Of a DNA stretch of 64,000 nucleotides, positions 20,473 to 44,897 are shown piece after piece. The stretch covers positions 29,699-93,698 of the forward strand of contig LBVJ01000001.1 of the NCBI GenBank assembly GCA_000993025.1, read 5' to 3'. A model generated the notes under the pieces. The model was not told the DNA's origin and did not search any database. It was given only the letters and a program-made list of their open reading frames with translations. Both the position numbers and the translations under genes were made by a program. How positions within the stretch are numbered: the first letter of the stretch is position 1; each line of letters begins with the position of its first letter. Source of the DNA: Candidatus Woesebacteria bacterium GW2011_GWA1_38_8. Lineage in GTDB: Bacteria > Patescibacteriota > Microgenomatia > UBA8517.

Positions 20473-20533
20473 AGTATGTAAATTATACCACAATAATTTG
20501 CTGTAAATATGAAAAAAGACGTATAATTCCAGC

Positions 20534-21031
20534 ATGGAAAATGGAAATATATTTAATAGTCCGAACGGAAACATTTACAATACCGGCGAACTCTTAAGGG
20601 AAATAAAATACTTTGTAGATGAACAACCTGCAGAATTTTATTCACTGATCATAGGCACTGACTCACAAACAAAGAGAATAAATGGAGTTTCAGAAATTGA
20701 TTTTGTTACCGCAATAATAATCTACAGGAAGAAAAAGGGGGCTAGATATTTTTGGACTAAAAAACAAGAGATAAAAAAAGCCGTCTTAAGAGATAAGATC
20801 TATACAGAGACTCTATTGAGTCTTGAATATGCGGAAAGTATAGTGCCTGAAATCAGAGGAATCATACCGCCCTCGAAGTACGACCTTGAAATACATATCG
20901 ATGTTGGACCATTTGGTAAAACAAGAAACATGATCCGTGAGGTAGTTGGTATGGTGACCGGAAATGGTTATGTCGCGAAAACTAAACCTGAAAGTTGGGG
21001 AGCAAGTTCGGTTGCTGATAAGCATACTTGA
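20534..21031 (+). CDS. YkuK-family (DUF458) RNase H-like protein
   Basis: 165 aa; SLIIGTDSQTKRINGVSEIDFVTAIIIY matches the GTDSQ-containing YkuK signature as remembered. Confidence 0.45.
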   Translation: MENGNIFNSPNGNIYNTGELLREIKYFVDEQPAEFYSLIIGTDSQTKRINGVSEIDFVTAIIIYRKKKGARYFWTKKQEIKKAVLRDKIYTETLLSLEYAESIVPEIRGIIPPSKYDLEIHIDVGPFGKTRNMIREVVGMVTGNGYVAKTKPESWGASSVADKHT

Positions 21032-21106
21032 CCAAGCTGCGCTTGTTAATTTCTAATTTTTAATTACTAATTTCTAAATATTTATTTTTGGGGTAATATT
21101 ACACTC

Positions 21107-21829
21107 ATGAAAGGAATAATATTGGCCGGGGGAAAGGGAACAAGGCTGCGTCCCTTAACAATAATTACCTGTAAACAGCTTCTTCCTGTTTACGACAAAC
21201 CAATGATATATTATCCGATCAACACTCTGGTCACCTCAGGAATAAAGGACATCTTAATAATAATCGCTCCTGAATATTCAGGACATTTCTTAAATTTACT
21301 TGGATCGGGAAAAGAATTCGGAGCGCGCTTCAGTTACGCAATTCAAGATGAGCCCAGAGGTCTTGCAGACGCTTTTATAGTGGGAGAGGATTTTATCGAT
21401 AATGACAACGTCACTCTTATCTTGGGCGACAATATTTTTGAAAAGGATTTTTCAACGGAAATTGGTTCGTTTAAATCAGGTGGAATGGTTTTTGCGAAAA
21501 AAGTTTCTGACCCTGAAAGATTCGGTGTTGTAGAGTTTGATAAAAAAATGAAAGCAACAAAGATCGTTGAAAAACCTAAAGATCCAAAGAGTGATTATGC
21601 AGTTGTTGGGCTTTATGTTTATGACAAAAATGTGGTTAAAAATGCCAAGAATCTCAAACCCTCCGATCGTAGAGAGATCGAAATTACCGATCTTAATAAT
21701 CTATATTTAAAAGAGGATAATCTGAAAGTGAATATTTTTGACGGGATTTGGGAAGACGCAGGGGATTTTGACAGCTTGTTAAGGGTGAGTAATTATATGG
21801 CAGGAAAAGCAGCAAGAATTAAGGGATGA
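21107..21829 (+). CDS. rmlA: Glucose-1-phosphate thymidylyltransferase (short-form RmlA-like sugar nucleotidyltransferase)
   Basis: MKGIILAGGKGTRLRPLT (G-x-G-T-R-L) nucleotidyltransferase motif; 240 aa; heads a rmlABCD block. Confidence 0.75.
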   Translation: MKGIILAGGKGTRLRPLTIITCKQLLPVYDKPMIYYPINTLVTSGIKDILIIIAPEYSGHFLNLLGSGKEFGARFSYAIQDEPRGLADAFIVGEDFIDNDNVTLILGDNIFEKDFSTEIGSFKSGGMVFAKKVSDPERFGVVEFDKKMKATKIVEKPKDPKSDYAVVGLYVYDKNVVKNAKNLKPSDRREIEITDLNNLYLKEDNLKVNIFDGIWEDAGDFDSLLRVSNYMAGKAARIKG

Positions 21830-21878
21830 GTAATAAGTGAGAAGTACGGGGAAAAGAATGAATGTGGTCAAAAAGATT

Positions 21879-21905
21879 TTTCTAGTACTTAGTTTCTAGT
21901 ACCTA
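21879..21905. promoter_or_regulatory. Tandem near-palindromic 13-nt repeat (TTCTAGTACNTAG x2) just upstream of rmlB
   Basis: ttctagtacttag-t-ttctagtacctag; each unit centred on the palindromes CTAG/GTAC. 15 nt upstream of the rmlB ATG. Confidence 0.25.
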
Positions 21906-21920
21906 GTATATATCGAACTT

Positions 21921-22925
21921 ATGAATTTATTAGTTACAGGAGGGGCTGGCTTTATCGGAAATAATTTTATTCGATATTGGCTTAATAAATATCCGAAAGA
22001 TAAAATATTAAATTTTGACAAGCTCACATATGCAGGACATATCAGTTCCACAAGAGATTTTTCCCAAAATAATAATTACGAATTTATAAAGGGAGATGTA
22101 TGTGACGCAAAAGCAGTAGACGAAGCAGTAAAAAAAACTGACACCATAGTTCACTTTGCTGCAGAAAGCCACGTGGATCGTTCAATACTTGACCCTTTGG
22201 TGTTTGTTCACACAAATGTCATGGGAACACAGGTTTTACTCGAAGCTGCTGTTAAGTATAAGATCAACAGATTTCATCACGTTTCCACTGATGAAGTTTT
22301 TGGTGAGCTTAAATTGGGAACTAATAAAAAATTTAATGAAACCACTCAATATGACCCCAAAAGTCCATATTCTGCCAGTAAAGCGGCTTCAGACCATTTG
22401 GTGAGAGCTTATGGGAAAACATATTCCCTACCGATCACGATATCAAACTGCTCTAATAATTACGGACCCTTTCAGGATCCCGAAAAATTTATACCTCGTG
22501 CAGTAACGAATTTAATTGACGGTAAATCTGTTCCTATATATGGAGACGGTAAATATACACGTGATTGGCTGTATGTTGAAGACCATGTAAGAGCAATAGA
22601 GACCATATTAACAAAAGGAAAGGCTGGAGAGACTTATCTTATAGGAGGATTGACTGAGGATATTAATAATTTAGAGGTTGTTAGAATGATATTAAAAATA
22701 TTAAATATAAATGGGTCATACATAAAATATGTAAAGGACAGAGCAGCGCATGACAGAAGATATGCAGTCGATTGGAGGAAAATTCATAGTAAATTGAAAT
22801 GGAAACCTATGTATGGTTTTGATACGTGGCTTGAAAAAACAGTTGAATGGTATAAAAATAACGAATGGTGGTGGAGGCCGTTAAAGAAAAAGGCTGAAGT
22901 ATTTTATAGAAATACCGAAAAATGA
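21921..22925 (+). CDS. rmlB: dTDP-glucose 4,6-dehydratase
   Basis: TGGAGFIGNNF Rossmann motif; catalytic YSASKAASD (YxxxK); SDR extended family; 334 aa. Confidence 0.9.
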   Translation: MNLLVTGGAGFIGNNFIRYWLNKYPKDKILNFDKLTYAGHISSTRDFSQNNNYEFIKGDVCDAKAVDEAVKKTDTIVHFAAESHVDRSILDPLVFVHTNVMGTQVLLEAAVKYKINRFHHVSTDEVFGELKLGTNKKFNETTQYDPKSPYSASKAASDHLVRAYGKTYSLPITISNCSNNYGPFQDPEKFIPRAVTNLIDGKSVPIYGDGKYTRDWLYVEDHVRAIETILTKGKAGETYLIGGLTEDINNLEVVRMILKILNINGSYIKYVKDRAAHDRRYAVDWRKIHSKLKWKPMYGFDTWLEKTVEWYKNNEWWWRPLKKKAEVFYRNTEK

Positions 22926-22929
22926 TTAT

Positions 22930-23547
22930 ATGAAGTGTAAAAACTTGGACGTAAATAAATTAAAAGTAAGTTGTGAACCATACATAATCGACACTCCTAT
23001 AGAAGGAGTTTTTGCCGTTAAACGTCCAAGATACGGTGATTCCCGTGGCAGTTTTCAAGAACTTTTGAGAATTCCGGATATTTCCAAACGATTTCAAGAA
23101 ACACAGATAGATCAATCTCAAATATCTGTATCGAAAGTTAATGTCTTACGGGGGATCCATGCAGAACCCAGAGACAAGATCATTACACCAATTTTAGGTA
23201 GGATGGCGGCGGTGGTTGTTGATTTAAGGGTTGAATCACCGACTTTTAAAATGTGGGTTCGTTTTGATTTTGATAATACAAATCCTGAAAATGAATTTAC
23301 CACTCTTTTTGTTCCTTCAGGATGCGGAAATTCTCTTTGTGTGTACAAAAAATCCGATGATGCAGGGGATGGTACTGTAATTTACCATTATACCTACAGT
23401 AGTATTTATGATCCTAAGTGGTCGGGATCGGGAGTCAGATATAATGATCCCCAACTTGATATTATTTGGCCGATTAAAAATCCCGTTTTATCCAATAGAG
23501 ACAAGGAACTTCCACTGCTTGACGAATTTATTGTAAAATACCGATGA
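22930..23547 (+). CDS. rmlC: dTDP-4-dehydrorhamnose 3,5-epimerase-like cupin (RmlC)
   Basis: 205 aa cupin with DSRGSFQE and GIHAEPRDK region resembling RmlC active-site segments; positioned between rmlB and rmlD. Confidence 0.65.
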   Translation: MKCKNLDVNKLKVSCEPYIIDTPIEGVFAVKRPRYGDSRGSFQELLRIPDISKRFQETQIDQSQISVSKVNVLRGIHAEPRDKIITPILGRMAAVVVDLRVESPTFKMWVRFDFDNTNPENEFTTLFVPSGCGNSLCVYKKSDDAGDGTVIYHYTYSSIYDPKWSGSGVRYNDPQLDIIWPIKNPVLSNRDKELPLLDEFIVKYR

Positions 23548-24449
23548 ATGATAAGGTGCTAATTACAGGTTCCGACGGAATGGTCGGCTCAAGGTTTGTT
23601 GAACTATATCCAAATAAAAACGAACTGCTTGCTCCAACAATCGCCGAATTTGACCTGTTGAATCCTCATTCGATGGAAAGATATCTGAAAAATAACCCGG
23701 TTTCGTCTGTAATTAATTTTGCAGCCTATACGGATGTGAGAGAAGCAGAGAAAGATAGAGGAAATGAAAATGGACTGTGCTGGAATATAAACATTAAGGG
23801 AATAAAAAATCTGGTTAGTCTATTCGGATCGAAAGTTCATCTTGTACATATTTCAACCGATATGGTATTTAGCGGAAGTAAAGATGATAAGGGACCTTAT
23901 AAAGAGGTACGATGTCCCGAGCGGGATCCGAGCAAGGTTACATGGTATGGTTATACCAAAGGGGAAGGTGAGAATATTATAAGAGAGGCGGATATTAGTT
24001 CAACAATAATAAGAATAATATATCCGGTCAGGGCAAAATATGATAATAAATCAGATTATCTGAGAAAACATTTGAAGCTATATAATGATGATGCATTGTA
24101 TCCGATGTTTAGTGATCAGAAAATATCTGTCACCTTTATTGATGAATTATGTACGACTATCGGTAAAATATTATCCGATAAAATACGTGGTGTCTATCAT
24201 TGTTCCTCAAGTGATACTACCACACCTTATGAACTGATCAGTTATTTAATTGAGGCTAAATATGGAGTGAAAAATACCGTGAAAAGTGCATCTATACATG
24301 AATTTTTGAGAACTTCGGATAATCCACTGAGATATCCCATATTCGGAGGATTAAAATGCGGCATTTCACAAAAAGCACTTGGTATCAGGTATTCCACTTG
24401 TAAGCAGATCGTGAACAAATTGATCGGGCAAAATATTTCTCCTAGATAA
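23544..24449 (+). CDS. rmlD: dTDP-4-dehydrorhamnose reductase (RmlD-like SDR)
   Basis: N-terminal VLITGSDGMVGSRF NAD(P)-binding motif, YGYTKGEGE (YxxxK); 301 aa; last gene of the rml block. Confidence 0.7.
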   Translation: MNDKVLITGSDGMVGSRFVELYPNKNELLAPTIAEFDLLNPHSMERYLKNNPVSSVINFAAYTDVREAEKDRGNENGLCWNINIKGIKNLVSLFGSKVHLVHISTDMVFSGSKDDKGPYKEVRCPERDPSKVTWYGYTKGEGENIIREADISSTIIRIIYPVRAKYDNKSDYLRKHLKLYNDDALYPMFSDQKISVTFIDELCTTIGKILSDKIRGVYHCSSSDTTTPYELISYLIEAKYGVKNTVKSASIHEFLRTSDNPLRYPIFGGLKCGISQKALGIRYSTCKQIVNKLIGQNISPR

Positions 24450-24593
24450 TTTCATAACAGACCTTCATTCTTTTTTTACCACATTAATACTACTCTTCCA
24501 TAGTGCATAATAAATTGTATTATAGGATTATTTGTTATATAATATACCTCACTTTACAGGCTCGTACGGTATTTCTTAAACGAATTATAAGAT

Positions 24594-27572
24594 ATGGATA
24601 AATACATAATAAATATATATACAAGCAGCGATATTTCATGGAGAACTAAAGTCTATTTGAAGAAGATCGGACGATTATTTACTGGTAATAAAAATGTTTC
24701 AGTGCCGATGGGTGCTGTCTTTAACAAAAGGAACAGATACGAAAAAAATAATATTGTTTATGAAACATATAATGGACTTGAAAAAGAATTCTCGGCTTTT
24801 GAAACCCTGACTGATGGTCAGAAATTATATTGGTCGATAGTTATAATTTCTCTTTTGATCCTGGGACTAATTAATATTCACTTCATGCTTGTTCTTATAG
24901 TCGGCTCTTTGACGTTTATCTACTTTGCCGATTTTTTGTTTACGCTTCTTATTATTGCGCGGTCATTTGCAAATAAATCGGAAATTAAATTCACAAATGA
25001 TGAGCTCGTCGAATTGGATGATTTCACTCTTCCAAGATACACGATACTGTGCCCGCTTTATAAGGAATGGGAGGTAATTGAACAATTTGTAAGATCAATA
25101 GAGATCATCGATTGGCCGAAGGACAAACTTGAAGTAATACTCCTTCTCGAGGAAGACGATACAAAAACAATTAATAAGGCATATGATCTTAATTTACCTT
25201 CCTATTTTCGAATCGAGGTAGTACCAAACTCGCTTCCGAAAACAAAACCAAAGGCATGTAATTATGGCTTGTCTAAAACTACGGGAGAATTTGTTGTCGT
25301 ATATGATGCTGAGGATAAGCCGGATCCCCTTCAGCTTAAAAAAGCCTACCTTGCATTTTCAAGGCTTCCGGAGAACGTTTCGTGCCTGCAATCGAAACTG
25401 AATTACTATAACCAGAACCAGAATATTTTAACAAGGCTATTTACGGCAGAATATTCTTATTGGTTTAATATTGCCCTAACCGGTCTTCAGACATTGAATA
25501 CAATTATTCCTCTTGGAGGGACAAGCAACCATTTTAGGACACCTTTTCTTAAAGATCTGCAGGGGTGGGATCCTTTCAATGTGACCGAGGATTGCGATCT
25601 CGGTACGAGGCTTTTTAAAAAGGGATATAGGACATCCGTTATTGATTCCGAAACGCTCGAAGAGGCAAATTCCAATATTAAAAGTTGGCTCAAACAGAGA
25701 TCGCGATGGATTAAGGGCTACATGCAGACATATCTTGTTCACATGAGAAATCCTATGGAATTTTTAATCAGATATAAACACCACGCTTTACTTTTTCAAT
25801 TGATCATCGGAATGAGAATGGTCTTTATTATTATAAATCCGATCCTATGGCTGATGACTATAGCGTATTTTTCAATGTATCCGGTATTTGGACCTTTTAT
25901 CGAATCGTTATATCCATGGTACATCTTCTATCCGGCTGTATTTTGTCTGATTTTTGCGAATTTTACGTATTTGTATTCATTCATGATCGCATCGGCTAAA
26001 AAAGACAAATGGGAACTTATCCAATACATATTTCTGATGCCTTTTTACTGGCTACTGACAAGTATCTCAGCCGGAATCGCATTTCATCAACTTATAACTA
26101 ACCCATACTATTGGGAAAAGACTAAACATGGGCTTCATTTGGGTAAAAATGAATCGGTTGATAAGGTGTCGGGTATACTGGATATCACAACTACTCCCGT
26201 CTTTCAATTTCCTTACTTTAAATATTTACAAGGCTTTCCGGGTAAATTTATTGTGTCGATTAGGTTGGTGATAAATTTCAAACCTATGGGGATAAAAATA
26301 TCGACCATATCCTTAAGGGAATTAATTTATACGGCAAAAGCATCGCTATACATTAATATTATATCTTTCATCAAACTATTCGGAAATGTAAATATCTCAC
26401 GTCCGCATAATAATAAACAAAACATATTGATCCTGAACTGGAGAGATGTCGGACATGTATGGAAAGGCGGAGCGGAAGTATATGTTCAGGAAATCGCAGA
26501 AAGATGGGTAAAGGGTGGATATGGAGTTACGATCCTCAGCGGAAATGACGGTAATTCCATGTACGATGAAAAAATACACGGTGTAAATATTATGAGAAGG
26601 GGTGGGTTTTTTACCCTGTATCTGTGGGTTTTGATATATTATGTATTCCGACTCCGAAAACATTTTGACCTTATTGTTGATTGTGAAAACGGGATACCCT
26701 TCTTTTCACCCCTGTACAGTACGCTTCCGAAAATTCTTCTCATCCATCATGTCCATCAACAGATCTTCAGGGAAAATTTACCGCTTCCATTCTCCTGGCT
26801 GGCAATGTTTCTGGAGTCGCGTGTCATGAAATATGTCTATAGATCAACAAAAATTGTGACGGTTTCCGAATCAAGTAAAGCCGACATCGCCGGACTTGGG
26901 CTTTCAAAGATCGAGGATATTGAAATAGTAACCCCGGGTATAAACCTCAGGAATTTCAGGAAACTTAAAAAATACACATTTCCCACCTATTCATATCTGG
27001 GTAGATTGATGCCCTATAAAAATATTGATATTTTAATAAAGGCATTTAAAGAAGTGTTACAAAGTGTTCCGGATGCAAAACTTATCATTGCTGGAAGGGG
27101 TCAGTACGAAGAACATCTCAATAGACTTGTTCATAAACTTGATATAGAAAGATTTGTTGAATTTAAGGGTTATGTCAGCGAAAATGAAAAGAGAGAGATC
27201 TTGGGTAGAAGCTGGTTTCTGGTCCAGCCTTCGTCATTTGAAGGTTGGGGAATGACAGTAACAGAGTCAAACGCTGCGGGTACGCCTGTGATCGCGTCAA
27301 ACACCGCAGGATTGAGGGATTCCGTACTAGACGGGCAAACCGGAATACTGGTTAAAACGAAAAGCGTTAAAGAATTGGCAAGATCGATGATAGCGCTGAC
27401 AGAAATGGATGGATTCAGAGAAAGGATTTCAAGAAATGCATATGATTGGTCACGCAAATATTCTTGGAATGTTTCTGCAAGGTTATTTATAAATATACTA
27501 AACAGAGAATCCGTCTCTCCTGCACTAGTTGAGGAGGGTTCAGCAAGCTCAGTGGCGTATTTGGAGGAATAA
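24594..27572 (+). CDS. Bifunctional membrane glycosyltransferase: processive-type GT2 synthase domain (DxD, QxxRW) fused to a C-terminal GT4 domain
   Basis: 992 aa. N-terminal TMs; GT2 core with YDAEDKPD (DxD) and QRSRWIKG (QxxRW), followed by 4-5 TM helices as in cellulose/hyaluronan/NodC-type synthases. Residues ~600-990 form a GT4 domain (EGWGMTVTESNAAGTPVIASNTAGLRDSV). Confidence 0.7.
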   Translation: MDKYIINIYTSSDISWRTKVYLKKIGRLFTGNKNVSVPMGAVFNKRNRYEKNNIVYETYNGLEKEFSAFETLTDGQKLYWSIVIISLLILGLINIHFMLVLIVGSLTFIYFADFLFTLLIIARSFANKSEIKFTNDELVELDDFTLPRYTILCPLYKEWEVIEQFVRSIEIIDWPKDKLEVILLLEEDDTKTINKAYDLNLPSYFRIEVVPNSLPKTKPKACNYGLSKTTGEFVVVYDAEDKPDPLQLKKAYLAFSRLPENVSCLQSKLNYYNQNQNILTRLFTAEYSYWFNIALTGLQTLNTIIPLGGTSNHFRTPFLKDLQGWDPFNVTEDCDLGTRLFKKGYRTSVIDSETLEEANSNIKSWLKQRSRWIKGYMQTYLVHMRNPMEFLIRYKHHALLFQLIIGMRMVFIIINPILWLMTIAYFSMYPVFGPFIESLYPWYIFYPAVFCLIFANFTYLYSFMIASAKKDKWELIQYIFLMPFYWLLTSISAGIAFHQLITNPYYWEKTKHGLHLGKNESVDKVSGILDITTTPVFQFPYFKYLQGFPGKFIVSIRLVINFKPMGIKISTISLRELIYTAKASLYINIISFIKLFGNVNISRPHNNKQNILILNWRDVGHVWKGGAEVYVQEIAERWVKGGYGVTILSGNDGNSMYDEKIHGVNIMRRGGFFTLYLWVLIYYVFRLRKHFDLIVDCENGIPFFSPLYSTLPKILLIHHVHQQIFRENLPLPFSWLAMFLESRVMKYVYRSTKIVTVSESSKADIAGLGLSKIEDIEIVTPGINLRNFRKLKKYTFPTYSYLGRLMPYKNIDILIKAFKEVLQSVPDAKLIIAGRGQYEEHLNRLVHKLDIERFVEFKGYVSENEKREILGRSWFLVQPSSFEGWGMTVTESNAAGTPVIASNTAGLRDSVLDGQTGILVKTKSVKELARSMIALTEMDGFRERISRNAYDWSRKYSWNVSARLFINILNRESVSPALVEEGSASSVAYLEE

Positions 27573-27574
27573 AT

Positions 27575-28681
27575 ATGAATAATAAGAAAAAAATAGTTAT
27601 ATCAAATTATGATGATATTAAAAACCCCGATTATGCCGGGGGTGCTTCTGTCTCGATATTTAAATTGGCAAAACATTTGTCTCAAGAATATGATGTTTTA
27701 TTAATTACCGGTAAATACCCCGGTTCAAAGGACGAAATAGTGGACGGGGTGAATTACAAAAGAATCGGTTCATACATTATGGGTGGTAAAATCGGACATT
27801 TGTTTTATCTGCTTGCCTTACCCTTCGCATCGATAAGAAATGAATGCGACTTGTGGATCGAAAGTTTTACACCCCCATTCTCAGTTTCATTGGTACCATT
27901 GTTTCTGGGTAAAAATAAAGTTGTAGGTTTGGTACACATGTTGTCAGGAGTTGATATGAAGAGAAAATATAAACTACCCTTCAATAAAATTGAACATTTA
28001 GGTCTGAAGTTATATGAAAAATATATTGTATTAACTGAAGCATCAAGAAAAGAAATATTAAAATCAAATCCAAATGCACAAGTGTCGTTGATACCTAATG
28101 GAATTAATATCCCGTCAGAAAACAGTTTGAAAGTTAAAAAGAAATCGCAAATACTTTTTATTGGTCGTATTGAAGTAAATCAAAAAGGACTTGACCTGCT
28201 TATCAAAAGTTATAAGAAAGCTATTGATAAGATAGATGCAGAACTTGTGATTGCAGGAACAGGGATGAAAGACGAACTTCATAAGCTTGATTGTTTAATT
28301 ACCAAGTATAATTTAATAAATAAGATTAGGCTGGTGGGTCGTGTTGGCGGAAAGGCCAAAGATAAGCTTATACGTGAATCTCATATGATAATTGTACCAT
28401 CGAGATTTGAGACTTTTGGAATTACGGCGCTCGAAGCATTATCAAATAAAATTACTTTAATTTGTTTTGATATAACAGGTTTTAAATGGTTGCCTAAAAA
28501 CGTTGCATTCAAAATAATTCCATTTTCAGTTAAAGATCTTTCACAAACGATTATCGATCTTTTTAATAACCCCAGATTAAGAAATAATAAAATAGAAAAT
28601 GGTTATAGATTTTCAGCTCGTTTCGCATGGAAGGATGTCTTTTTGAAGTATGATGAAGTTATAAAAATATATATCAAATAA
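27575..28681 (+). CDS. GT4-family glycosyltransferase
   Basis: 368 aa; C-terminal IVPSRFETFGITALEALS (E-x7-E) donor-binding motif. Confidence 0.7.
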   Translation: MNNKKKIVISNYDDIKNPDYAGGASVSIFKLAKHLSQEYDVLLITGKYPGSKDEIVDGVNYKRIGSYIMGGKIGHLFYLLALPFASIRNECDLWIESFTPPFSVSLVPLFLGKNKVVGLVHMLSGVDMKRKYKLPFNKIEHLGLKLYEKYIVLTEASRKEILKSNPNAQVSLIPNGINIPSENSLKVKKKSQILFIGRIEVNQKGLDLLIKSYKKAIDKIDAELVIAGTGMKDELHKLDCLITKYNLINKIRLVGRVGGKAKDKLIRESHMIIVPSRFETFGITALEALSNKITLICFDITGFKWLPKNVAFKIIPFSVKDLSQTIIDLFNNPRLRNNKIENGYRFSARFAWKDVFLKYDEVIKIYIK

Positions 28682-28685
28682 ACAT

Positions 28686-30533
28686 ATGGATGAGATAGTA
28701 AATTATATAGTTATAAATAAAATAAAATGTTATTTTATATCCCCTCATCAGGACGATGCAATATTTTCGGCAGGGGGACTTATATCGTATCTTTCAAATA
28801 AGACGGAGGTAAAGGTCATAAACGTATTTAACGGTATCGGAAAACCACCCTATACTTTGTCCGGAAATGTATTTGTTAAAAGAAGCGGATGTAAGAGTGT
28901 CAAAGACCTGTGTGATAAAAGACACCTTGAAGATGCTTCGGTGTTTAAAGAGATGGGAGTAGATATGATTAATCTAAATTTTGATGATGCGTTGTGGAGA
29001 AAAAAACCAATTATTAAAACACACGAAAGGATTATCGGGAAAGTATTACCTGAGATATTGCACATATATCCAATTTACCGTACATCAATTGCGCATGGAC
29101 AGATTAAAAAATCGGATGAGAGTAACTTGGGAAAAATAGAAAAGGCCTTACGTAAAAACATTAAAGGCAAAAATGTGTTCGTTTTTTGTTCAGCGTCGAT
29201 TGGAGGACACGTTGATCATAAGATTGTAAGAAATATATGTGAGAGTAGCTTCAAAAACTTATATTTGTGGTCGGATTATCCTTACAACATCAGACTCGGT
29301 AATTATAAGAATTACAAAAGTATTTCGGAAAATGATTATTTTGAATTCAAATACGGTCAACCTAAAAGATTTGAAATGATCAAAAAATATATAACTCAAA
29401 AAAATGTCTTTAAAAATAACCAAATTAGAGTTACAAAGGAAATTTATTATTTCAAAGGAAAGTATGAAAATCTTATTAAAGAATCACGGGAGGGAATAAT
29501 TAACATAGAAACTAAACAGACATTAGATGAAAAACTTAAAAGTGATTGGATAGCGCTTTGGAATAGAAGCGACAACGCAAACATATCAAACTCACCTGAC
29601 TGGTTTGAAATATGCAATAAAACATATAAGTATAAGAATATCAATTTTGTATGTGCATACTGCGGTAAAGATTTGGTTGGTATCTTGCCGCTTCGGAAAG
29701 AGAAGTTTCTGTTTTTTGAACATTACACAACTATGGGTGGCAGGTATACCGACAAACTTGAGTTATTGACAGCAAGAAATTCCACAAATCTCTTGAATAA
29801 AATTATTCTGTACGCAAAAAAGCAATTTGACAACATTTCGCTTCCTGAATCTGATTTCGAAACTGCAATGTATTTGGCAAATGTATGGAATGCAAAATAC
29901 TCATGTTCTTCCGTGACTCCATATATTCCGGCAACAGACAACTATTTAGAGTTTTTATCCCGAAAACATAAAAAGGCAATGGACCATATTTTGAAAAGCC
30001 ACGGAGATAAACTGAAATTTAAAATTATTGGGGAGAAGCACCTGGATTATCTGGATCAAATTGTCCGTTTAGAAAGAAAAAGCACTAAATCAACCAAAAG
30101 AATCGGAACTATTAAATGTGCAAATGATATAAGATTTTTACGAAATATCATTTCAAAGTTTAACAAGAATATTTGTCTGGTTTTACTTTTTTACAATGGC
30201 AGGTTGGCTGCTTTTCGTATTGGGGCGGGTGTAAAGGGGGTTTATTATACATTTATGACTGCATACCGGGAATTCGCCAGGGAAGTTATTCCGGGAAGGT
30301 TGCTTCTTTATTATGTTTTAAGAAATAGACTTCGTGAAGGTATTTCGAAAGTTGACATGCTACGTGGTGATAATCAAATAAAAAGAGATTACACACCTTT
30401 CATGGAATACAGGTTTAACGTGTATCTGGGATACCGTCTATTTTCGTACAGTAATATATTATTTTGCAAATTAAAATATTTTATAGATCAGCATAGTTTT
30501 TTGTACAAAATATGTTTGTTGGTTAAACATTAA
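28686..30533 (+). CDS. Fusion of PIG-L/LmbE-like N-acetylglucosaminyl deacetylase (N-terminal) and FemAB/CelD-like (Acetyltransf_6/GNAT-fold) acyltransferase domain (C-terminal)
   Basis: 615 aa. N-terminal YFISPHQDDAIFSAGG (LmbE SPHPDDE-type zinc-binding motif) and later His-rich segment (GGHVDHKIV). The C-terminal ~330 aa resemble BioF2-like/CelD/FemAB acyltransferase domains (large GNAT-like, ends ...DMLRGDNQIKRDYTPFMEYRFNVYLG). Confidence 0.55.
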   Translation: MDEIVNYIVINKIKCYFISPHQDDAIFSAGGLISYLSNKTEVKVINVFNGIGKPPYTLSGNVFVKRSGCKSVKDLCDKRHLEDASVFKEMGVDMINLNFDDALWRKKPIIKTHERIIGKVLPEILHIYPIYRTSIAHGQIKKSDESNLGKIEKALRKNIKGKNVFVFCSASIGGHVDHKIVRNICESSFKNLYLWSDYPYNIRLGNYKNYKSISENDYFEFKYGQPKRFEMIKKYITQKNVFKNNQIRVTKEIYYFKGKYENLIKESREGIINIETKQTLDEKLKSDWIALWNRSDNANISNSPDWFEICNKTYKYKNINFVCAYCGKDLVGILPLRKEKFLFFEHYTTMGGRYTDKLELLTARNSTNLLNKIILYAKKQFDNISLPESDFETAMYLANVWNAKYSCSSVTPYIPATDNYLEFLSRKHKKAMDHILKSHGDKLKFKIIGEKHLDYLDQIVRLERKSTKSTKRIGTIKCANDIRFLRNIISKFNKNICLVLLFYNGRLAAFRIGAGVKGVYYTFMTAYREFAREVIPGRLLLYYVLRNRLREGISKVDMLRGDNQIKRDYTPFMEYRFNVYLGYRLFSYSNILFCKLKYFIDQHSFLYKICLLVKH

Positions 30534-30584
30534 AAGTATGAGAATAGGAGACTAATATAAATATCGTCATAATCATTATATGAA

Positions 30585-32120
30585 TTGGGTGTTTTCCAAA
30601 TATTTATGAAATTTTTAAGTACATTATATATATTCATAATTACCTTACTATTAATTTCACTATTAACGAAGGGTGTGCGTTCTAACATAATGCCGTCAGA
30701 TGTTTATTCTTTAAAGGATTACTCCCAACCCTTTGAACTTTCACCTGAGAGAGGAAGGTATGCTTTGACTCAATCAATTGTTGAGAATCATAGTTTGTTT
30801 CTCCCATTGGAAATTGCTGGATATGTCACACCCGATCTTGGTTATATTAATGGAAACTTTGTTTCTCTATTTGCGCCAGGAGTATCTTTTGTGGTTATAC
30901 CATTTTATTATATCGGTAAATATTTTAATGCAAACCAGCTTTTCACTTTTTGGTCTGTAGGATTGGCTGCTGTAATCAATGCGTATATCATTTCTGACAT
31001 TGTTAACCGTATTACTAAATCAGGATTTGGCTACATCGCGGGATTGTCTTTTATTTTTGCTACTTCCGCATTAGCTTACGCGACTACATTATATCAACAC
31101 CATTTTACGACACTGATTATTTTGCTAGCACTTCATATAACCATATTTTCAAATAATACAAACAATTCATTGTTAATGGGTGTCCTGTTTGGGGTAATGT
31201 TATTGATAGAATATCCGGCAGTCATATTTTTACTCCCAATTATATTGGTTTATATGTTTAGACATTATTGTTCACTTCAAAACAAAGAATCATTTAAAAT
31301 TTCGATAGATTCCAGAATAATGCTATTTATCTTATACGTATTCATAGGAATAATTCCAACTTTGATTTACAACAGTTATGTAAATACAAACCCCTTTAAA
31401 CTTTCCGGAACTGTAGAATCTGTCGAGAACATAAATATAAATAACAATGGTTCAGGTTATGAAATCATAAAAGGAGAAACTGATGAGTTTAAAAAAAGCG
31501 TTGGAGGATTTTTCAAATATGAAAACATTGCAAATAGTTGGTATATATTGCTTTTAAGTAGTGAAAGAGGAATTCTGTTTTACTCTCCACTGTATTTACT
31601 TACCATATTAATATTTAATTTGAAAAACAAAATATCAGATATCGAAAAATACCCATTTTATCTTTTAGTATCAATTAATTTTGCAGTATTATTGTTATAC
31701 GGTATGTGGGGAGATCCGTGGGGCGGTTGGGCATTCGGACCAAGATATTTAATTCCATTCTTTGCTTTTTCCTCAATATTATTGGGAATAGTGTTTAAGT
31801 ATTATGCATACAGTCATTGGTTTAAATTATCTTATTTTACACTTCTAGTTTACTCAATCTTAATAAATGTTGCTGGTGCTCTGACTACAAATGCAATTGT
31901 TCCAAGTAAAGAAGCAGAATCTGCATTGATGCCAACAATAAAATACCTATATAATTTTGAGTTGATTGGATTCGGAAAGTCGTCTTCATTTATTTACAAC
32001 ACATATTTTAGTAAGTACATTCCGCTAACCGTATTTTATATTCTTATAATTGCAATTATCGTTTTCTTGTTATTCCTCGCAAATAAGATGTCATCAGATA
32101 AAATATCTCATGAAAATTAA
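30585..32120 (+). CDS. Polytopic membrane protein, GT-C-fold glycosyltransferase-like (ArnT/PMT-like)
   Basis: 511 aa, >=11 TM helices. Conserved acidic/Arg motif in the first extracytoplasmic loop (SPERGRYALTQS), as in lipid-linked-sugar-dependent GT-C enzymes. Confidence 0.45.
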   Translation: MGVFQIFMKFLSTLYIFIITLLLISLLTKGVRSNIMPSDVYSLKDYSQPFELSPERGRYALTQSIVENHSLFLPLEIAGYVTPDLGYINGNFVSLFAPGVSFVVIPFYYIGKYFNANQLFTFWSVGLAAVINAYIISDIVNRITKSGFGYIAGLSFIFATSALAYATTLYQHHFTTLIILLALHITIFSNNTNNSLLMGVLFGVMLLIEYPAVIFLLPIILVYMFRHYCSLQNKESFKISIDSRIMLFILYVFIGIIPTLIYNSYVNTNPFKLSGTVESVENININNNGSGYEIIKGETDEFKKSVGGFFKYENIANSWYILLLSSERGILFYSPLYLLTILIFNLKNKISDIEKYPFYLLVSINFAVLLLYGMWGDPWGGWAFGPRYLIPFFAFSSILLGIVFKYYAYSHWFKLSYFTLLVYSILINVAGALTTNAIVPSKEAESALMPTIKYLYNFELIGFGKSSSFIYNTYFSKYIPLTVFYILIIAIIVFLLFLANKMSSDKISHEN

Positions 32121-34815
32121 CTTTATAAATCGCAAAGTGGTGATTTCTTTTAATGATAAATCAATAAAGAAATCATTGAATTTTTATAATAAACATGGTG
32201 TATTGGTTGTGACCATATTCACTTCAATTTTGAGTTTTATATCGATATTGGTTTCATATAAATACGATATTATCCTTGCATATAACGATTCTCGTGCCCA
32301 TATGAATATGGCAAGACTTGTGTTTGATAATTTGAAACCCGGGTTTGCCCAGTTGGGGGGGGTGTGGCTTCCCTTTCCTCATATTATGATACTTACACTT
32401 GTATGGAATGATTGGTTGTGGCAGAGCGGGATTGCTGGATCAATTTATTCAATGTCTTTTTATGTTCTTTCATCAATATATATTTTTAAGCTTCTTAGAT
32501 TTTTAATTAAAGATAAGGTAACTGTATTTATCTGCACTCTAAACTATGTTATTAACGTCAATTTATTGTACATGCAATCAACTCCAATGACTGAATTAAC
32601 GTTGATATTCTTTTTTATAACCTCTGTCTATTATTTACTTCAATGGGTAAATACTAAAAAAGTATTACATATGATTTTACTTGCATTATCGGTTTTTTTG
32701 GCAACTCTTACAAGATATGATGGATGGATGCAATTTCTAACAACATTGACTGTTTTAATTATTGTTGAATTTATGGAATTTAAGACTAATTTCAGAAAAA
32801 ATAATTTTGGTTCTATTATTAAAAGCATTTTATTGAACGCGAAGATGCGTTCAACTATCTTATTTTTTAGTGTTATGGCAGGTCTTGGAATATTGTTATG
32901 GATCCTGTGGAATTATTTGATATTTGATGACCCTATATATTTTGCAGTTGGTCCATATTCCGCAAGGGCTCAGCAATTTGCCATAGAAAGTGCTGGAAAA
33001 CTTTTTACAAAACACAATATTGCACTTTCATTATCTGCATATTGGTGGGCTGTATCCGATAACGTTGGAATAATCGTTTTGCTCACGGGTATTATAGGTT
33101 TTATATGTTTTGTAATGGAAAATCCAAATAAATACACTAAAATTGTGCTTTTAACACTTTTTTCTCCGGCTATATTTCATATTGCTTCGTTATATTTAGG
33201 AAGTTCAGTGTTGGTGTTGCCAGAAATGAATATTAATGTTGCAGAGGGATTGAAGGGAACACTTTTTAACGCAAGGTATGGATTGATAATGCTTCCCGCA
33301 GTAAGTGTTTTTATGGCATATTTTGCAAGGAGAAGCGTCTTCGCAAAGTCTATTGTATTTTTTGTTGTCATATTTACACCTCTTATGATGTTAAAGGATA
33401 ACTATATTATCACTTTGACAGATGGAAAAATGGGGTCAAGTTCACTTAGAGTGAAAGATGTTAGTGAATGGCTGAAACAGAACGCCGATGACAGTAATGA
33501 ATTAATATTGACAGCACTATCATACAATAGCGCACTTTCTTTCAGCACAGGATTTCCATTAAGCAGATTTATCCATGAAGGAACTGGAAAATATTGGGAA
33601 TCCTCTGTAGTTGATCCTGATCAATATGCGGATTGGATTGTAATGGCAAATGGAGATGTCGGGGATCCCTTGTATGACTCATTAATAAAGAAACATGATT
33701 CACAATTCTTAAGGAATTATGAATTGAAAAAACGATTTGAATTTATTGATGTCTATGTAAAAAAATATGTACCAGATGATTTTGTATATGTTAGAGATAG
33801 TGGTTTTTGGATGAATGGTGATAGATACAAGTTTCTTGGAGTAAATTCCTATGACCTAATTTTCCGCTCTCCAAATGAAGTTGCCTCGACACTGTCATCG
33901 GCAAAAAACAATGGAATTGATGTGGTCAGAGTATGGGTTTTTGGTGAAGGTAGTGAAAATTTAATACAACCTGAACCCGGAAAGTATAATTCAATACTTA
34001 TGAACAATGTGGATTATGTTTTGGCAACAGCATACAAGTTGGATATGAAAGTGATACTCGTCATGTCAAATTATTGGGAAGCATATGGGGGAATAAGACA
34101 GTATTTGCGATGGGTAGATTTACCTGACCAATCAGCTTCAGATTTAGATGCATTCTTTACCGATAGTCGAACAAAAGATATCTACAAAGACTTTATAAGG
34201 GAGATAGTTCTAAGAAAAAACAGTCTAACGGGAGAATTATACAAAAACGACCCCGCAATATTTTCTTGGGAGCTTATGAACGAACCTAGAAGTTCTTCGA
34301 CCGGAACAGCCGGAAAGGTTACTGAATGGATAGATGAAATGTCTAGTTTTATCAGAACATTGGATAAATATCACATGATTACGTCAGGCCACGAAGGACA
34401 CTTTAGTGACTTCTCAATAAACCCATATGCAACAGGTCCATTTATCGATCAGTTTGGTCATAAATCCGATTTTGATGCGTTGTCTGGACATTATTATATT
34501 GATCAATACATATCAGAAAAACCACTTTATGAATTTGAAATAATTGACAAGTGGAGCGACCATGCAAAGGAAATTGATAGGGCGTTTTTTATTGAGGAAA
34601 TCGGTTTTTCAAAAAGATCTGGGGAAAACTCTGGTTATGATAGATTGTTTCTTTATGAAAAACTTTTTGAATCGGCAAAGAAAAACGATGTACAGGGTGT
34701 TATTGTTTGGAATTGGGCTTTAAAAATTGATGATGATTTTGGTATTTCGCCACTCGATCCAAACGACGAAAAACTTATAAAGTTATTAAACTTATATTCA
34801 AAAAGTCTAAAATAA
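32110..34815 (+). CDS. Fusion: N-terminal polytopic GT-C-like membrane domain + C-terminal GH5-family (beta-mannanase/cellulase-like) glycoside hydrolase domain
   Basis: Start taken as ATG 32110 (MKINFINRK); the ORF-track start at 32050 overlaps the previous gene by 70 nt. Residues 1-480: ~12 TM with AYNDSRAHMNMARLV loop motif. Residues ~560-900: GH5 (beta/alpha)8 signatures, including the acid/base WELMNEPR (NEP) and nucleophile FFIEEIGFS motifs. Confidence 0.6.
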   Translation: MKINFINRKVVISFNDKSIKKSLNFYNKHGVLVVTIFTSILSFISILVSYKYDIILAYNDSRAHMNMARLVFDNLKPGFAQLGGVWLPFPHIMILTLVWNDWLWQSGIAGSIYSMSFYVLSSIYIFKLLRFLIKDKVTVFICTLNYVINVNLLYMQSTPMTELTLIFFFITSVYYLLQWVNTKKVLHMILLALSVFLATLTRYDGWMQFLTTLTVLIIVEFMEFKTNFRKNNFGSIIKSILLNAKMRSTILFFSVMAGLGILLWILWNYLIFDDPIYFAVGPYSARAQQFAIESAGKLFTKHNIALSLSAYWWAVSDNVGIIVLLTGIIGFICFVMENPNKYTKIVLLTLFSPAIFHIASLYLGSSVLVLPEMNINVAEGLKGTLFNARYGLIMLPAVSVFMAYFARRSVFAKSIVFFVVIFTPLMMLKDNYIITLTDGKMGSSSLRVKDVSEWLKQNADDSNELILTALSYNSALSFSTGFPLSRFIHEGTGKYWESSVVDPDQYADWIVMANGDVGDPLYDSLIKKHDSQFLRNYELKKRFEFIDVYVKKYVPDDFVYVRDSGFWMNGDRYKFLGVNSYDLIFRSPNEVASTLSSAKNNGIDVVRVWVFGEGSENLIQPEPGKYNSILMNNVDYVLATAYKLDMKVILVMSNYWEAYGGIRQYLRWVDLPDQSASDLDAFFTDSRTKDIYKDFIREIVLRKNSLTGELYKNDPAIFSWELMNEPRSSSTGTAGKVTEWIDEMSSFIRTLDKYHMITSGHEGHFSDFSINPYATGPFIDQFGHKSDFDALSGHYYIDQYISEKPLYEFEIIDKWSDHAKEIDRAFFIEEIGFSKRSGENSGYDRLFLYEKLFESAKKNDVQGVIVWNWALKIDDDFGISPLDPNDEKLIKLLNLYSKSLK

Positions 34816-34897
34816 TAGACGGGTTATTGATACGTCTGGAAGACATTGTTTACGCCTCTTCATATGGACACAGTTACGATATATAATATAGTTCCAA

Positions 34898-35845
34898 ATG
34901 AAAGTGTCACTTGTTGTTACCGTACTAAATGAAGAACCGTCGATTGCAGCACTTCTCGAGTCTATTATTTCTCAGTTAAAGAAACCTGATGAGATTGTTA
35001 TTGTCGATGGTGGTTCAACCGACAAGACTGTAAACATAATAAAAAGTTATCAAAAAATTATTAAGAATATAAAATTATATGAATTTAAGACTACAAGATC
35101 CGAAGCGAGAAATATTGGAATAGATGCATCTTCAGGCAATATTATTGTTACAACAGACGCAGGTTGCGTTGCCGAAAAACATTGGATAGAAAAGATTACA
35201 AAACCGTTTTATGAACCAAAAGTTGATATGGTTGCAGGATTTTATGAAATGATCGGCGGTAATTCTTCATTAAGGCTTGCAATGTCCGTATTTATTGGTA
35301 TAACACCTGACAAATTTGATGATAGATTTTTGGCGTCGGCTAGATCTTTGGCATTCCGAAAAGATCTTTGGGAGAAAGTAGGAGGGTTTCCTGAAGGTTT
35401 GAAAGATACCGCAGAAGATACACTTTTCAATTACAAAATTATTACAACAGGGGCGAAGATAGTACGTGTAAAAGATGCGGTTGTGTACTGGCAATTGCCG
35501 TTGACTTTGACGGAAGGGATCAAAAAAATGTATCTTTATGCCAAAGGTGATGCTTTATCCGGTATATGGTGGCATCCGGTAAAGAAATTATCGACCCACA
35601 ACATTAAGATCATCTCCGTATATTTAAGGTATGTAATTGGTATCTATATACTCCTTATGGCCACAAAATATGAATTGTTTAATTTACTGTTCGTATTGGG
35701 AATATTTTTTTATATGTTTTGGGCATTTAAGAAAGTATACTGTCGGACGAACAGTTTTAAAGCCGGTTTGTGGGGGGTAATTATACAGTTTGCTTCGGAC
35801 ATTGCCGTAATGCTCGGCTTCCTTATGGGATTGGTGTCAATATAA
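34898..35845 (+). CDS. GT2-family glycosyltransferase with C-terminal membrane helices
   Basis: SLVVTVLNEE...IVIVDGGSTDKT GT2 N-terminus; TTDAG DxD-like motif; C-terminal 3 TM. Confidence 0.7.
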   Translation: MKVSLVVTVLNEEPSIAALLESIISQLKKPDEIVIVDGGSTDKTVNIIKSYQKIIKNIKLYEFKTTRSEARNIGIDASSGNIIVTTDAGCVAEKHWIEKITKPFYEPKVDMVAGFYEMIGGNSSLRLAMSVFIGITPDKFDDRFLASARSLAFRKDLWEKVGGFPEGLKDTAEDTLFNYKIITTGAKIVRVKDAVVYWQLPLTLTEGIKKMYLYAKGDALSGIWWHPVKKLSTHNIKIISVYLRYVIGIYILLMATKYELFNLLFVLGIFFYMFWAFKKVYCRTNSFKAGLWGVIIQFASDIAVMLGFLMGLVSI

Positions 35846-35894
35846 CCTTCAGAAACATTTAAGGCATTAAGAATGATAAAATCAGATCATTGAT

Positions 35895-37112
35895 ATGGGT
35901 TACTTTGACACAAGCATGTCGGGTGTAAAATGGATTGGATCGTTTAAGATATTGAGTAGAATATTGTCACTGGTAAGAATCGCAATTCTAGCCAGAATTC
36001 TATCCCCCATTCAATTCGGAGTATTTGGAATTGCCTCTTTAGCATTATCAGTTGTTGAGACTTTGACTGAACCGGGGATTTACGTATATTTGATGCAGGA
36101 GAAAAAAAGTATCCACAAATATATTGATACGGCTTGGGTTATATCAATTCTCAGAGGTGTTTTATTGTTTACCACCCTGATTTTTTCTTCAGGCATTATA
36201 TCCGGCTTTTTTAACACACCGGAAGTGAAACATATTATAAACTTAATTGCACTGGTTGTTTTAATAAGAGGGTTCATGAATCCCTTGAGGGTCAATTTCC
36301 TGAAACAATTGGATTATAGAAAAGAATTTTCAATCAATAGTTTAGTCTTATCTGTTGATATTGTTGTCACTGTCTTATCGGTGGCACTTTTTAAAGACCC
36401 TCTTGGATTAGTTTTAGGATTGATCGCGGGTGCCATTGTGGAAGTGATTCTTTCTTTTGCTCTTATAAAATATCACCCAAAAATTAAATTTGATATTCGG
36501 TTGGCAAAAAAAATAACGTCTGCGGGAAAATGGGTTACCGGTAGCACAATTTTCAACTTTCTATTTAGCGAAGGTGATGACACCCTTGTGGGGAAGTTAT
36601 TAGGCAAATACGATCTGGGGATATATCAGATCTCATATAAAATTGCGACACTACCTCTTACAGAAATTACCAATGTGGCAAATACAGTAACATTTCCGAT
36701 ATTCGTACAGATCTCGAATGAAAAGAAACGCATTGCAAAGGTATTCATAAAAACAGCTTTGATTATTGGCTTATTGTCGTTTGTATTAAGTACTTTTATA
36801 TTTTTATTTGCTGACACAATCGTTGCGATACTACTCGGAAGTGCATGGAGTGACTCGGTAGATTTAATTAAACTACTGGTGATATTCGGATTCATTAGAG
36901 CAATCGCAATATCCTGCAACCCTCTTTTTAATGCATTAAAAAAGCAAAAATATGTTACGTTATATACCACAATCTCATTTGTACTTATGGCAATGACAAT
37001 TTTTCCATTAATGCAGAAATTTGGCCTGAGAGGTGTAATCTATTCAGTCATTATATCCTCGTCAATCTCGTTTTTAGTGAATGTAATAAATGTAATAAAA
37101 GTACTCAAATGA
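35895..37112 (+). CDS. wzx: Polysaccharide/O-unit flippase (Wzx, MOP superfamily)
   Basis: 405 aa, ~12 TM. N-terminal KWIGSFKILSRILSLVRIAILARILSPIQFGVF is typical of the Polysacc_synt family. Confidence 0.65.
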   Translation: MGYFDTSMSGVKWIGSFKILSRILSLVRIAILARILSPIQFGVFGIASLALSVVETLTEPGIYVYLMQEKKSIHKYIDTAWVISILRGVLLFTTLIFSSGIISGFFNTPEVKHIINLIALVVLIRGFMNPLRVNFLKQLDYRKEFSINSLVLSVDIVVTVLSVALFKDPLGLVLGLIAGAIVEVILSFALIKYHPKIKFDIRLAKKITSAGKWVTGSTIFNFLFSEGDDTLVGKLLGKYDLGIYQISYKIATLPLTEITNVANTVTFPIFVQISNEKKRIAKVFIKTALIIGLLSFVLSTFIFLFADTIVAILLGSAWSDSVDLIKLLVIFGFIRAIAISCNPLFNALKKQKYVTLYTTISFVLMAMTIFPLMQKFGLRGVIYSVIISSSISFLVNVINVIKVLK

Positions 37113-44779: not shown

Positions 44780-44897
44780 ACATCTATAGATCGATAACTC
44801 GTACCATATTCCAAACTGAGCCGATGAGAGGAGTTGACAATTTTATAATAATTGGCTACTTTCCCCTAACCAAATTGCTCTACATGATTAATACTTG

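Follow-up and report, generated by a model that had tools for sequence, protein, structure and literature searches.

A PIG-L deacetylase fused to a predicted FemX-fold acyltransferase in a strain-variable envelope-glycan cassette of Patescibacteria

The DNA analyzed here, which we call the window, is a 64,000-nucleotide, AT-rich stretch (GC ∼32–38%) from Candidatus Woesebacteria bacterium GW2011_GWA1_38_8 (contig LBVJ01000001.1, positions 29,699 to 93,698). At positions 27575–30533 of the window, a gene for a GT4 glycosyltransferase is directly followed by one for a 615-amino-acid (aa) protein that joins a PIG-L/LmbE-type deacetylase to a GNAT-fold domain. An earlier sequence-only reading had singled out this pair; the coordinates it gave proved exact, and its interpretation is supported to the extent that computation can support it. 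The 615-aa fusion has been deposited as “hypothetical protein US67_C0001G0024” (Candidatus Woesebacteria bacterium GW2011_GWD1_38_10), and there is no NCBIfam model for it. The pair and the parts of the fusion are laid out as follows.

27575..28681, + strand: GT4 glycosyltransferase (GT-B fold), 368 aa; Pfam match, without a membrane segment
28686..30533, + strand: fusion protein, 615 aa; PIG-L plus Acetyltransf_6, beginning after a 4-nt gap behind the GT4
28686..29456, + strand: PIG-L/LmbE-type de-N-acetylase domain, residues 1–257 of the fusion
28740..28757, + strand: SPHQDD motif, residues 19–24 of the fusion, read from the sequence
29208..29219, + strand: HVDH motif, residues 175–178 of the fusion, second half of the PIG-L metal/catalytic site
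29493..30434, + strand: tandem-GNAT (FemX-fold) putative acyl/aminoacyl-transferase domain, residues 270–583, Pfam Acetyltransf_6
30381..30383, + strand: Lys566, near-invariant, in the pattern G-x4-(hydrophobic)-K-x-x-F/Y-x-P
30435..30533, + strand: two C-terminal helices (residues 584–615) past the GNAT core, then the stop codon; from the secondary structure of the AlphaFold2 (AF2) model

Both halves of the fusion match Pfam families above the curated thresholds. PIG-L (PF02585) is matched at residues 17–185 (E 9e-13, 49.2 bits against a cut-off of 28.2), and Acetyltransf_6 (PF13480, the CelD/BcsL-type GNAT family) at residues 440–567 (E 8e-13, 49.2 bits against a cut-off of 22). An AF2 model built on eight family members (predicted local distance difference test, pLDDT, 85.2; predicted template modeling score, pTM, 0.85) places the domains at ∼1–257 and ∼270–615, with a disordered, low-confidence linker at 261–268, so the split at 1–240 and 260–615 suggested earlier was about right. 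The fusion is not an assembly artefact, because nine contigs carry the identical 615-aa protein and the same architecture occurs at 27–42% identity in independent metagenomes.

The N-terminal domain has the LmbE Rossmann-like fold and is closest by sequence to the N-acetylglucosamine (GlcNAc) deacetylases of glycopeptide antibiotics, Dbv21 (E 4e-10) and Orf2* (E 7e-7). SPHQDD aligns with ISPHLDDA, and HVDH with H-P-D-H, of these two enzymes; the zinc motif SPHQDD...H..H named in the sequence-only reading is intact, with no metal residue lost. By comparison with MshB and Orf2*, zinc is predicted to be bound by His21 and Asp24, with Asp23 acting as general base. In our alignment A1, H175 and D177 never vary, and the metal/catalytic motifs as a whole are preserved in the query as well as in 16 of the 19 fusion representatives. 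Three members (P0006, P0008, and P0031) have a degenerate SP[AS]FGD in place of SPHQDD, and only in degenerate members is the last His of HxDH replaced by Tyr. Family, predicted fold, and motifs together suggest that this domain is a deacetylase acting on the N-acetyl group of an amino sugar. The preceding 368-aa GT4, which shows the two-domain profile of the GT-B fold (Pfam Glycos_transf_1, E 4.3e-28; Glyco_transf_4, E 1.4e-10) and has PimA as its best solved sequence relative (E 3e-9), is presumed to install the N-acetyl-hexosamine that PIG-L uses. In almost every related locus a homologue of it lies directly 5′ of PIG-L, and in three of these loci (L012, L019, and L020) the two are fused. 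Hydrophobic membrane segments are absent from both the 368-aa GT4 and the 615-aa protein; the two should therefore be cytoplasmic, where aminoacyl-tRNA is available.

The C-terminal domain has a tandem (double) GNAT fold, and its top structural matches are FemX and FemA. All 20 members of the C-domain family match Acetyltransf_6 (best E 3.7e-17), whereas none of the 20 matches Pfam FemAB (PF02388), FemAB_like, or LPG_synthase_C, even at E ≤1. Thus, the earlier description of the domain as FemAB/CelD-like holds for the fold and for Acetyltransf_6 but not for the Pfam FemAB family itself: the domain is an Acetyltransf_6 member with a FemX-type fold, outside the FemABX sequence family. The structural ranking would fit a true Fem-type peptidoglycan branching enzyme, one that attaches an amino acid to the stem peptide while PIG-L deacetylates a peptidoglycan sugar; the missing FemAB match speaks against this role, as do the gene context and strain variation described below. 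In the same comparison, the Fem and Sbb17 enzymes score above MprF-type enzymes, and among other acyltransferases the scores are 16.2 for clavulanate ORF14 (the best coenzyme A [CoA]-dependent tandem GNAT), 13.0 for MshD, 12.6 for glucosamine N-acetyltransferase, and 11.2 for VipF.

The domain might in principle be non-catalytic, a module for regulation, substrate binding, or scaffolding by which the deacetylase is tethered to a membrane GT-C enzyme. HfsK, the relative considered here, binds cyclic di-GMP and is regulated in its localization, and no enzymatic activity has been shown for it (PMC5362036). Moreover, the C terminus of the domain is joined to a GT-C enzyme in triple fusions. However, polar and glycine residues of the domain are strongly conserved among 20 members that share 18–35% identity (W19, W23, N33, P267–G268, G292, and K297 in the numbering of A2, the 20-sequence C-domain profile), the GNAT domain stays conserved in P0006 and P0008 where PIG-L decays, and stand-alone copies and tandem paralogues of the FemX-like domain exist. 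We therefore regard a non-catalytic role as very improbable. The C-terminal helices (H584–602 and H604–614, pLDDT 60–75) may, by analogy, help the protein bind the membrane or a partner: HfsK uses its C-terminal end to associate with the membrane and requires a C-terminal extension to do so (PMC5362036), and in P0026 and P0035 the C terminus of the fusion runs straight into the GT-C membrane domain.

Which group would the C-terminal domain transfer? An acetyltransferase fused to a deacetylase and acting on the same nitrogen would be futile, so the group put back should be other than acetyl. The CoA pyrophosphate loop [QR]xxGx[GA] is absent from the β4–α3 position in all 19 fusion representatives; two stray regular-expression matches elsewhere in these proteins are unconserved. 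An invariant P-G-[K/R/N] is present instead. Lys566, which never varies in A1 and is conserved to at least 90% in A2, comes after I/L/F/Y and ahead of x-x-F/Y-x-P. For FemX (K305) and DhpH-C (F328–K329), a single lysine behind an aromatic residue has been named as the one reactive residue (PMC12945691), which makes Lys566 a plausible candidate, judged from sequence, for the counterpart of the Fem-type catalytic lysine. The C-domain is also basic in all members (net +5 to +29), including those in which the N-domain is neutral or acidic, a property that is compatible with, and weakly suggestive of, an affinity for a polyanion, be it tRNA or an anionic membrane. The absent CoA loop, the P-G-[K/R/N] element, the lysine in a Fem-like context, and the basic charge together favor an aminoacyl-tRNA donor. 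There is precedent for such chemistry, since Orf11, Sba18, and Sbb17 aminoacylate the amine of an amino sugar from Gly-tRNA (PMC12945691; PDB 9wqx).

The same order of reactions could instead draw on a non-acetyl acyl-CoA or acyl-carrier thioester and yield an N-acyl-glucosamine. We consider this unlikely but well short of negligible. Parallels exist in teicoplanin (Orf2* then Orf11*), Nod factors (NodB then NodA), and lipid A (LpxC then LpxD). Against it stands the absence of the CoA loop, and the cassettes examined contain no gene for an acyl-activating enzyme or carrier protein, which fits a housekeeping donor.

The fusion is as unusual as the sequence-only reading had supposed. An HMMER scan that covered 1.84 billion representative proteins exhaustively returned 1371 matches, of which ∼18 cover both domains; the majority are PIG-L-only proteins. 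The fusion is thus a rare new architectural variant of two known families. A scan of one genome per GTDB species found 43 related loci, with a true PIG-L–FemX-like fusion only in L008, L009, and, in part, L010; most of the other apparent fusions, judged by tblastn coverage, have adjacent separate genes. We then have 47 loci with this PIG-L subtype, made up of the GTDB loci and the contigs of fusion homologues, for which the open reading frames (ORFs) were analyzed: the two domains are fused in 10 (somewhat redundant among themselves), directly adjacent in 9, and within the same cassette in 4, and the remaining 24 are without a FemX-like gene. All informatively named sources of a fused or adjacent pair are Microgenomates-type Patescibacteria (Woese-, Davies-, and Amesbacteria) or “Patescibacteria group.” Nine loci (L008, L010, L013, L020, L022, L027, L031, L033, and L039) carry the titles “Gammaproteobacteria,” “Bdellovibrionales,” or “Pseudomonadales,” which look unreliable and were not used; their cassettes are as in Patescibacteria.

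Across all fusion states, the order GT4, PIG-L, FemX-like, GT-C is conserved in Patescibacteria. The four are separate genes in, for example, L013, L015, and L044. GT4 and PIG-L are fused beside a separate FemX-like gene in L020. PIG-L and the FemX-like domain are fused in the window, L001, L002, L006, L008, and L009, and in P0026 and P0035 (∼1140 aa) they form a triple fusion with a GT-C domain that is 35–39% identical by blastp, over ∼460–500 residues, to TM511, the GT-C protein encoded next in the window. L037 is split exactly at the linker into a 257-aa PIG-L and a 354-aa Acetyltransf_6 protein whose genes overlap by 4 nt. Where the fused PIG-L has lost its ligands (SPAFGD and HxDY in P0006 and P0008, undetected by Pfam), a stand-alone PIG-L gene of this subtype, intact and encoding 256–258 aa, lies immediately 3′ of the degenerate fusion. 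These permutations, together with the restored stand-alone deacetylase, imply that the two activities are needed together. From such comparisons of gene architecture, we argue that the fusion of PIG-L with the FemX-like domain is non-accidental and that the two are functionally coupled.

Functional coupling need not mean action on the same atom. In an alternative version of the pathway, PIG-L would leave a free glucosamine amine, as in glycosylphosphatidylinositol (GPI) anchors or partly deacetylated poly-N-acetylglucosamine, and the FemX-fold domain would form an ester between an amino acid and a hydroxyl group on the glycan or lipid, in the way that MprF modifies phosphatidylglycerol. However, the tightest couplings pair PIG-L with the FemX-like domain (the 10 fused and 9 directly adjacent loci), a stand-alone PIG-L beside degenerate fusions appears to restore the activity, and the amine-acylating Fem and Sbb17 enzymes outscore the MprF type in structural comparison. 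We thus find this version improbable.

The fusion belongs to a larger glycan locus, whose other features are these.

24594..27572, + strand: 992-aa processive GT2 synthase, embedded in the membrane and fused to a GT4 domain; conserved as the cassette's first gene
27451..34876, + strand: 7.4-kb block (GT4, fusion, TM511, and TM921) whose allele differs between near-identical strains
30585..32120, + strand: TM511, polytopic GT-C-fold glycosyltransferase, the next gene of the cassette (NCBI start 30606, giving 504 aa)
32050..34815, + strand: 921-aa protein with a polytopic membrane domain (TM921N) and a GH5 beta-mannanase domain
34898–35845: GT2_315, a 315-aa GT2 with three C-terminal hydrophobic segments
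35895–37112: Wzx, following the 315-aa GT2
42916–44091: Wzy, in the glycan locus
44897–45487: tRNA-Thr(CGT) and tRNA-Gly(CCC) genes, just beyond the end of the glycan locus

The conserved order of the cassette is GT2–GT4 synthase, GT4, PIG-L, a variable slot, TM511, and TM921N, often with rmlA–D upstream. In the slot after PIG-L there is most often a GT2, either separate or fused, and in other cassettes an APH-like kinase, a methyltransferase, or the FemX-like domain. Because the slot is so often filled otherwise, N-re-acylation would be one of several lineage-specific elaborations of a GT4/PIG-L core. The cassette as a whole is a conserved but undescribed envelope-glycan pathway of Patescibacteria; we found neither it nor the fusion described in the literature on Acetyltransf_6/PF13480, FemAB with exopolysaccharide, or LmbE with Patescibacteria. 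Gaps of 2–4 nt and a shared strand suggest that its genes are co-transcribed. A GGAGG precedes the GT4 ATG, within the 3′ end of the preceding gene. A promoter and terminator scan of 20500–37500 gave counts near the shuffled expectation (91 against 78 ± 7 and 12 against 8 ± 3), and no operon boundaries were drawn from it. One contig (CAYMJR010000005.1) carries two complete cassettes ∼14 kb apart (L013 and L031), each with a GT4, a PIG-L, and an adjacent FemX-like gene.

The first gene of almost every cassette encodes a homologue, 990 to ∼1640 aa in length, of the 992-aa synthase. That protein matches Pfam Glyco_trans_2_3 and Glycos_transf_1, carries a QRSRW motif and five hydrophobic segments, and resembles PgaC/IcaA (E 2e-16) and CelA (E 7e-13) in NCBIfam, both below cut-off. 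In PDB searches it matches BcsA (E 4.5e-9), and its GT4 part matches MshA (E 6e-17), the best solved relatives of that part being MshA, PimB′, and TarM. TM511 has ∼9 hydrophobic segments and a confident AF2 model (pLDDT 88.9, pTM 0.91), and all of its significant Foldseek matches are GT-C enzymes: ALG12 (E 2.6e-5), ArnT, ALG9, Emb, ALG3, STT3/AglB, AftB, and PimE. In NCBIfam it resembles the LA_3751/LA_3752 putative glycosyltransferase (E 1e-9), and its family comprises >1100 unannotated proteins, with one homologue carrying Pfam PMT_2. A TM921N homologue follows TM511 in most cassettes. In the window this membrane domain, with its hydrophobic segments, is part of the 921-aa protein, whose C-terminal GH5 beta-1,4-mannanase domain (Pfam Cellulase, E 1e-15; PDB mannanase 9m20, E 2.6e-46) may be a sign that this strain makes a mannan-like polymer. 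Other cassettes have a TM921N-type protein of ∼532 aa and then a separate ∼355-aa gene without a Pfam match or GH5 similarity. The 315-aa GT2 looks like a polyprenyl-phosphate glycosyltransferase of the GtrB/DPM1/ArnC type and could provide the GT-C proteins with lipid-linked donors. Enzymes of the GT-C class work at the outer membrane-facing side of the cell, that of the exterior, and use sugars linked to a lipid phosphate. Since the soluble deacetylase/FemX-like pair is tethered to a GT-C enzyme in some lineages, it most likely acts on a membrane-bound, lipid-linked intermediate at the inner face.

These observations fit together in the following mechanism. At the inner face, a lipid-linked acceptor in the membrane would receive an N-acetyl-hexosamine, most likely GlcNAc, from the GT4, and the PIG-L domain would strip the N-acetyl group via its zinc site. 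The FemX-fold tandem-GNAT domain would then place a group other than acetyl on the exposed amine; the most likely group is an amino acid, with aminoacyl-tRNA as its source. The modified intermediate would pass to the GT-C enzymes TM511 and TM921N at the outer face, for assembly of the polymer from the GT2–GT4 synthase. Within this scheme, we infer the sugar, the acceptor, the re-acylation of the same nitrogen, the donor, and the hand-over to the GT-C enzymes. Deacetylation followed by re-acylation of the same amine seems to us reasonably probable; if that much is granted, we lean slightly toward aminoacyl-tRNA as the donor. The full statement makes the 615-aa protein a bifunctional enzyme in the cytoplasm that carries out tailoring for an envelope glycan or glycolipid pathway, with aminoacyl-tRNA as the donor; it is more tentative, a possibility rather than an expectation. 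We offer with a shade more reserve still its extension to the group: that Patescibacteria N-aminoacylate lipid-linked glucosamine via aminoacyl-tRNA during the assembly of a surface glycopolymer or lipoglycan, before the GT-C steps outside.

Several observations weigh against this mechanism. First, the chemistry of every member is predicted from sequence and fold. The A2 profile finds no Fem or MprF enzyme, and no meaningful match, among PDB sequences; with no solved sequence relative and no Pfam FemAB match, the relationship to Fem enzymes is one of fold. The same profile retrieved two proteins from a word-indexed protein database, a search that was uninformative for more distant named relatives. 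The equivalence of Lys566 to K305 is tentative. The N-acetyl-hexosamine donor of the GT4 is suggested by its PIG-L partner, the GT4 sequence itself being uninformative. Second, about half of the related cassettes have no FemX-like gene and carry a GT2, kinase, or methyltransferase after PIG-L instead. A free amine need not be re-acylated, and the FemX-like domain could use another nucleophile. The third degenerate lineage, P0031, has no stand-alone PIG-L on its 4-kb contig. Finally, none of 20 related loci has a dedicated tRNA gene with its cassette. We weigh this last point as neutral because FemX_Wv is known to use Ala-tRNA(Ala) (PMC2175331). In the window, the tRNA-Thr and tRNA-Gly genes next to the glycan locus are probably there by coincidence. 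The Ala-tRNA(Ala) of FemX_Wv is, we presume, a housekeeping tRNA.

It is useful to contrast the fusion with systems of similar logic. In teicoplanin and A40926 biosynthesis, the LmbE-family enzymes Orf2* and Dbv21 are followed by the N-acyltransferases Orf11* and Dbv8. These are separate proteins acting on a soluble glycopeptide, whereas here the two activities would be fused and act on an envelope-glycan intermediate; moreover, the Orf11*/Dbv8 acyltransferase is not of FemX fold and uses acyl-CoA. The closest logic is found in the Caulobacter holdfast, where a deacetylase (HfsH) and a FemX-like tandem GNAT (HfsK) are encoded by unfused genes. HfsH is of the CE4 family, not PIG-L. HfsK has been proposed to acylate the amines that HfsH exposes, and its homologues have been linked to exopolysaccharide loci (PMC5362036). 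As far as sequence comparison can tell, the PIG-L–FemX-like fusion is independent genomic support for this proposed coupling. FemX, FemA, FemB, Orf11, Sba18, and Sbb17 share their fold with the C-domain, with no similarity detectable at the sequence level. Sbb17-type enzymes perform Gly-tRNA-dependent aminoacylation of the streptothrisamine amino sugar; the context of these enzymes is antibiotic or peptidoglycan, and here it is an envelope glycan.

The enzyme families of the cassette are also those of GPI-anchor core assembly (the GT4 PIG-A, PIG-L, GT-C mannosyltransferases, and the GT2 DPM1), to which ArnC/ArnD/ArnT can be compared, although ArnD belongs to a deacylase family different from PIG-L. 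In both, a GT4 step and PIG-L-type deacylation on the cytoplasmic side would come before GT-C enzymes that draw on lipid-linked sugars on the opposite side. However, GPI assembly is a eukaryotic pathway without a FemX-like step, and nothing here points to a phosphatidylinositol acceptor; the resemblance, drawn by analogy, is one of logic and family composition only. The parallel with mycothiol and bacillithiol in the sequence-only reading likewise stands for the logic of MshB and MshC-D and not for the pathway. Those thiols are soluble, whereas the fusion sits in an envelope-glycan context with membrane GT-C enzymes and a synthase. The MshA model (TIGR03449, cut-off 462.5) gives 92.9 for the 992-aa protein and 30.6 for the 368-aa GT4, and the BshA model (TIGR03999, cut-off 273.7) gives 65 and 44.3, respectively. 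Among the neighbors scanned at this locus, none is an MshC- or BshC-type ligase. With scores so far under the cut-offs, we rejected membership in either pathway.

The cassette also varies between closely related strains. Comparison of the window with locus L002 (ENA ERZ4902915 NODE_2703) by blastn aligns the flanks 23430–27451 and 34876–36772 at 97–99% identity; between them lie only short patches of ∼70% identity, and the encoded proteins are 36–49% identical. The upstream rmlB is 74.6% identical between the two. At the sequence level, this exchange of a 7.4-kb block looks like serotype-style cassette replacement by recombination, and it suggests that the product is under diversifying selection, for instance through its recognition by phages or hosts. 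Such swapping is typical of surface-antigen loci rather than of core wall synthesis. In addition, the cassette is without mur or other peptidoglycan genes, its neighbors in the glycan locus being rml genes, the GT2–GT4 synthase, GT-C enzymes, Wzx, and Wzy. Gene context, allele swap, and the lack of a Pfam FemAB match led us to reject the peptidoglycan branching role, which we hold to be extremely unlikely.

The fusion and its cassette may matter in several ways. To our knowledge, the reaction of FemX-like proteins (Acetyltransf_6, HfsK/CelD-type) from exopolysaccharide loci has never been demonstrated, and an aminoacyl-tRNA-dependent fusion would supply the missing chemistry for these widespread genes. 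The one published idea that we found for them is that HfsK re-acylates deacetylase-exposed amines (PMC5362036). Together with its split, pairwise, and triple relatives and the restored stand-alone deacetylase, the fusion offers Rosetta-stone support for the coupling of deacetylation and re-acylation, and it provides a compact, single-polypeptide test system for deacetylation-coupled, possibly tRNA-dependent, acylation of surface glycans. An aminoacyl-tRNA donor would extend tRNA-dependent chemistry to surface glycans. We know of no earlier tRNA-dependent modification of a cell-surface glycan, the known targets being peptidoglycan stems, membrane lipids, proteins, and antibiotics. More broadly, the surfaces of Patescibacteria mediate their epibiotic lifestyle and are essentially uncharacterized. 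The cassette is one of few conserved envelope-glycan pathways visible in these organisms, and the fusion predicts an unusual sugar decoration within its conserved yet strain-variable frame.

Some further variation concerns the two domains individually. FemX-like paralogues occur in tandem in L009, L028, and L041. In the unrelated loci L037 (9912–11312) and L051 (2033–3415), a gene for a FAD_binding_3-type flavin monooxygenase (∼460 aa) lies directly 3′ of the FemX-like gene or fusion, and its product may modify the transferred group. The PIG-L subtype is itself fused to a TM511 homologue in a single 1103-aa ORF of L046. Its other partners are a GT4 and a GT2 (in triple fusions), a polysaccharide pyruvyl transferase, and APH-like kinases; such members include L018 and L032 (both ∼975 aa), L034, P0015, P0020–22, and P0149. 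Thus, in the glycan tailoring of Patescibacteria, the PIG-L subtype plays the part of a hub domain.

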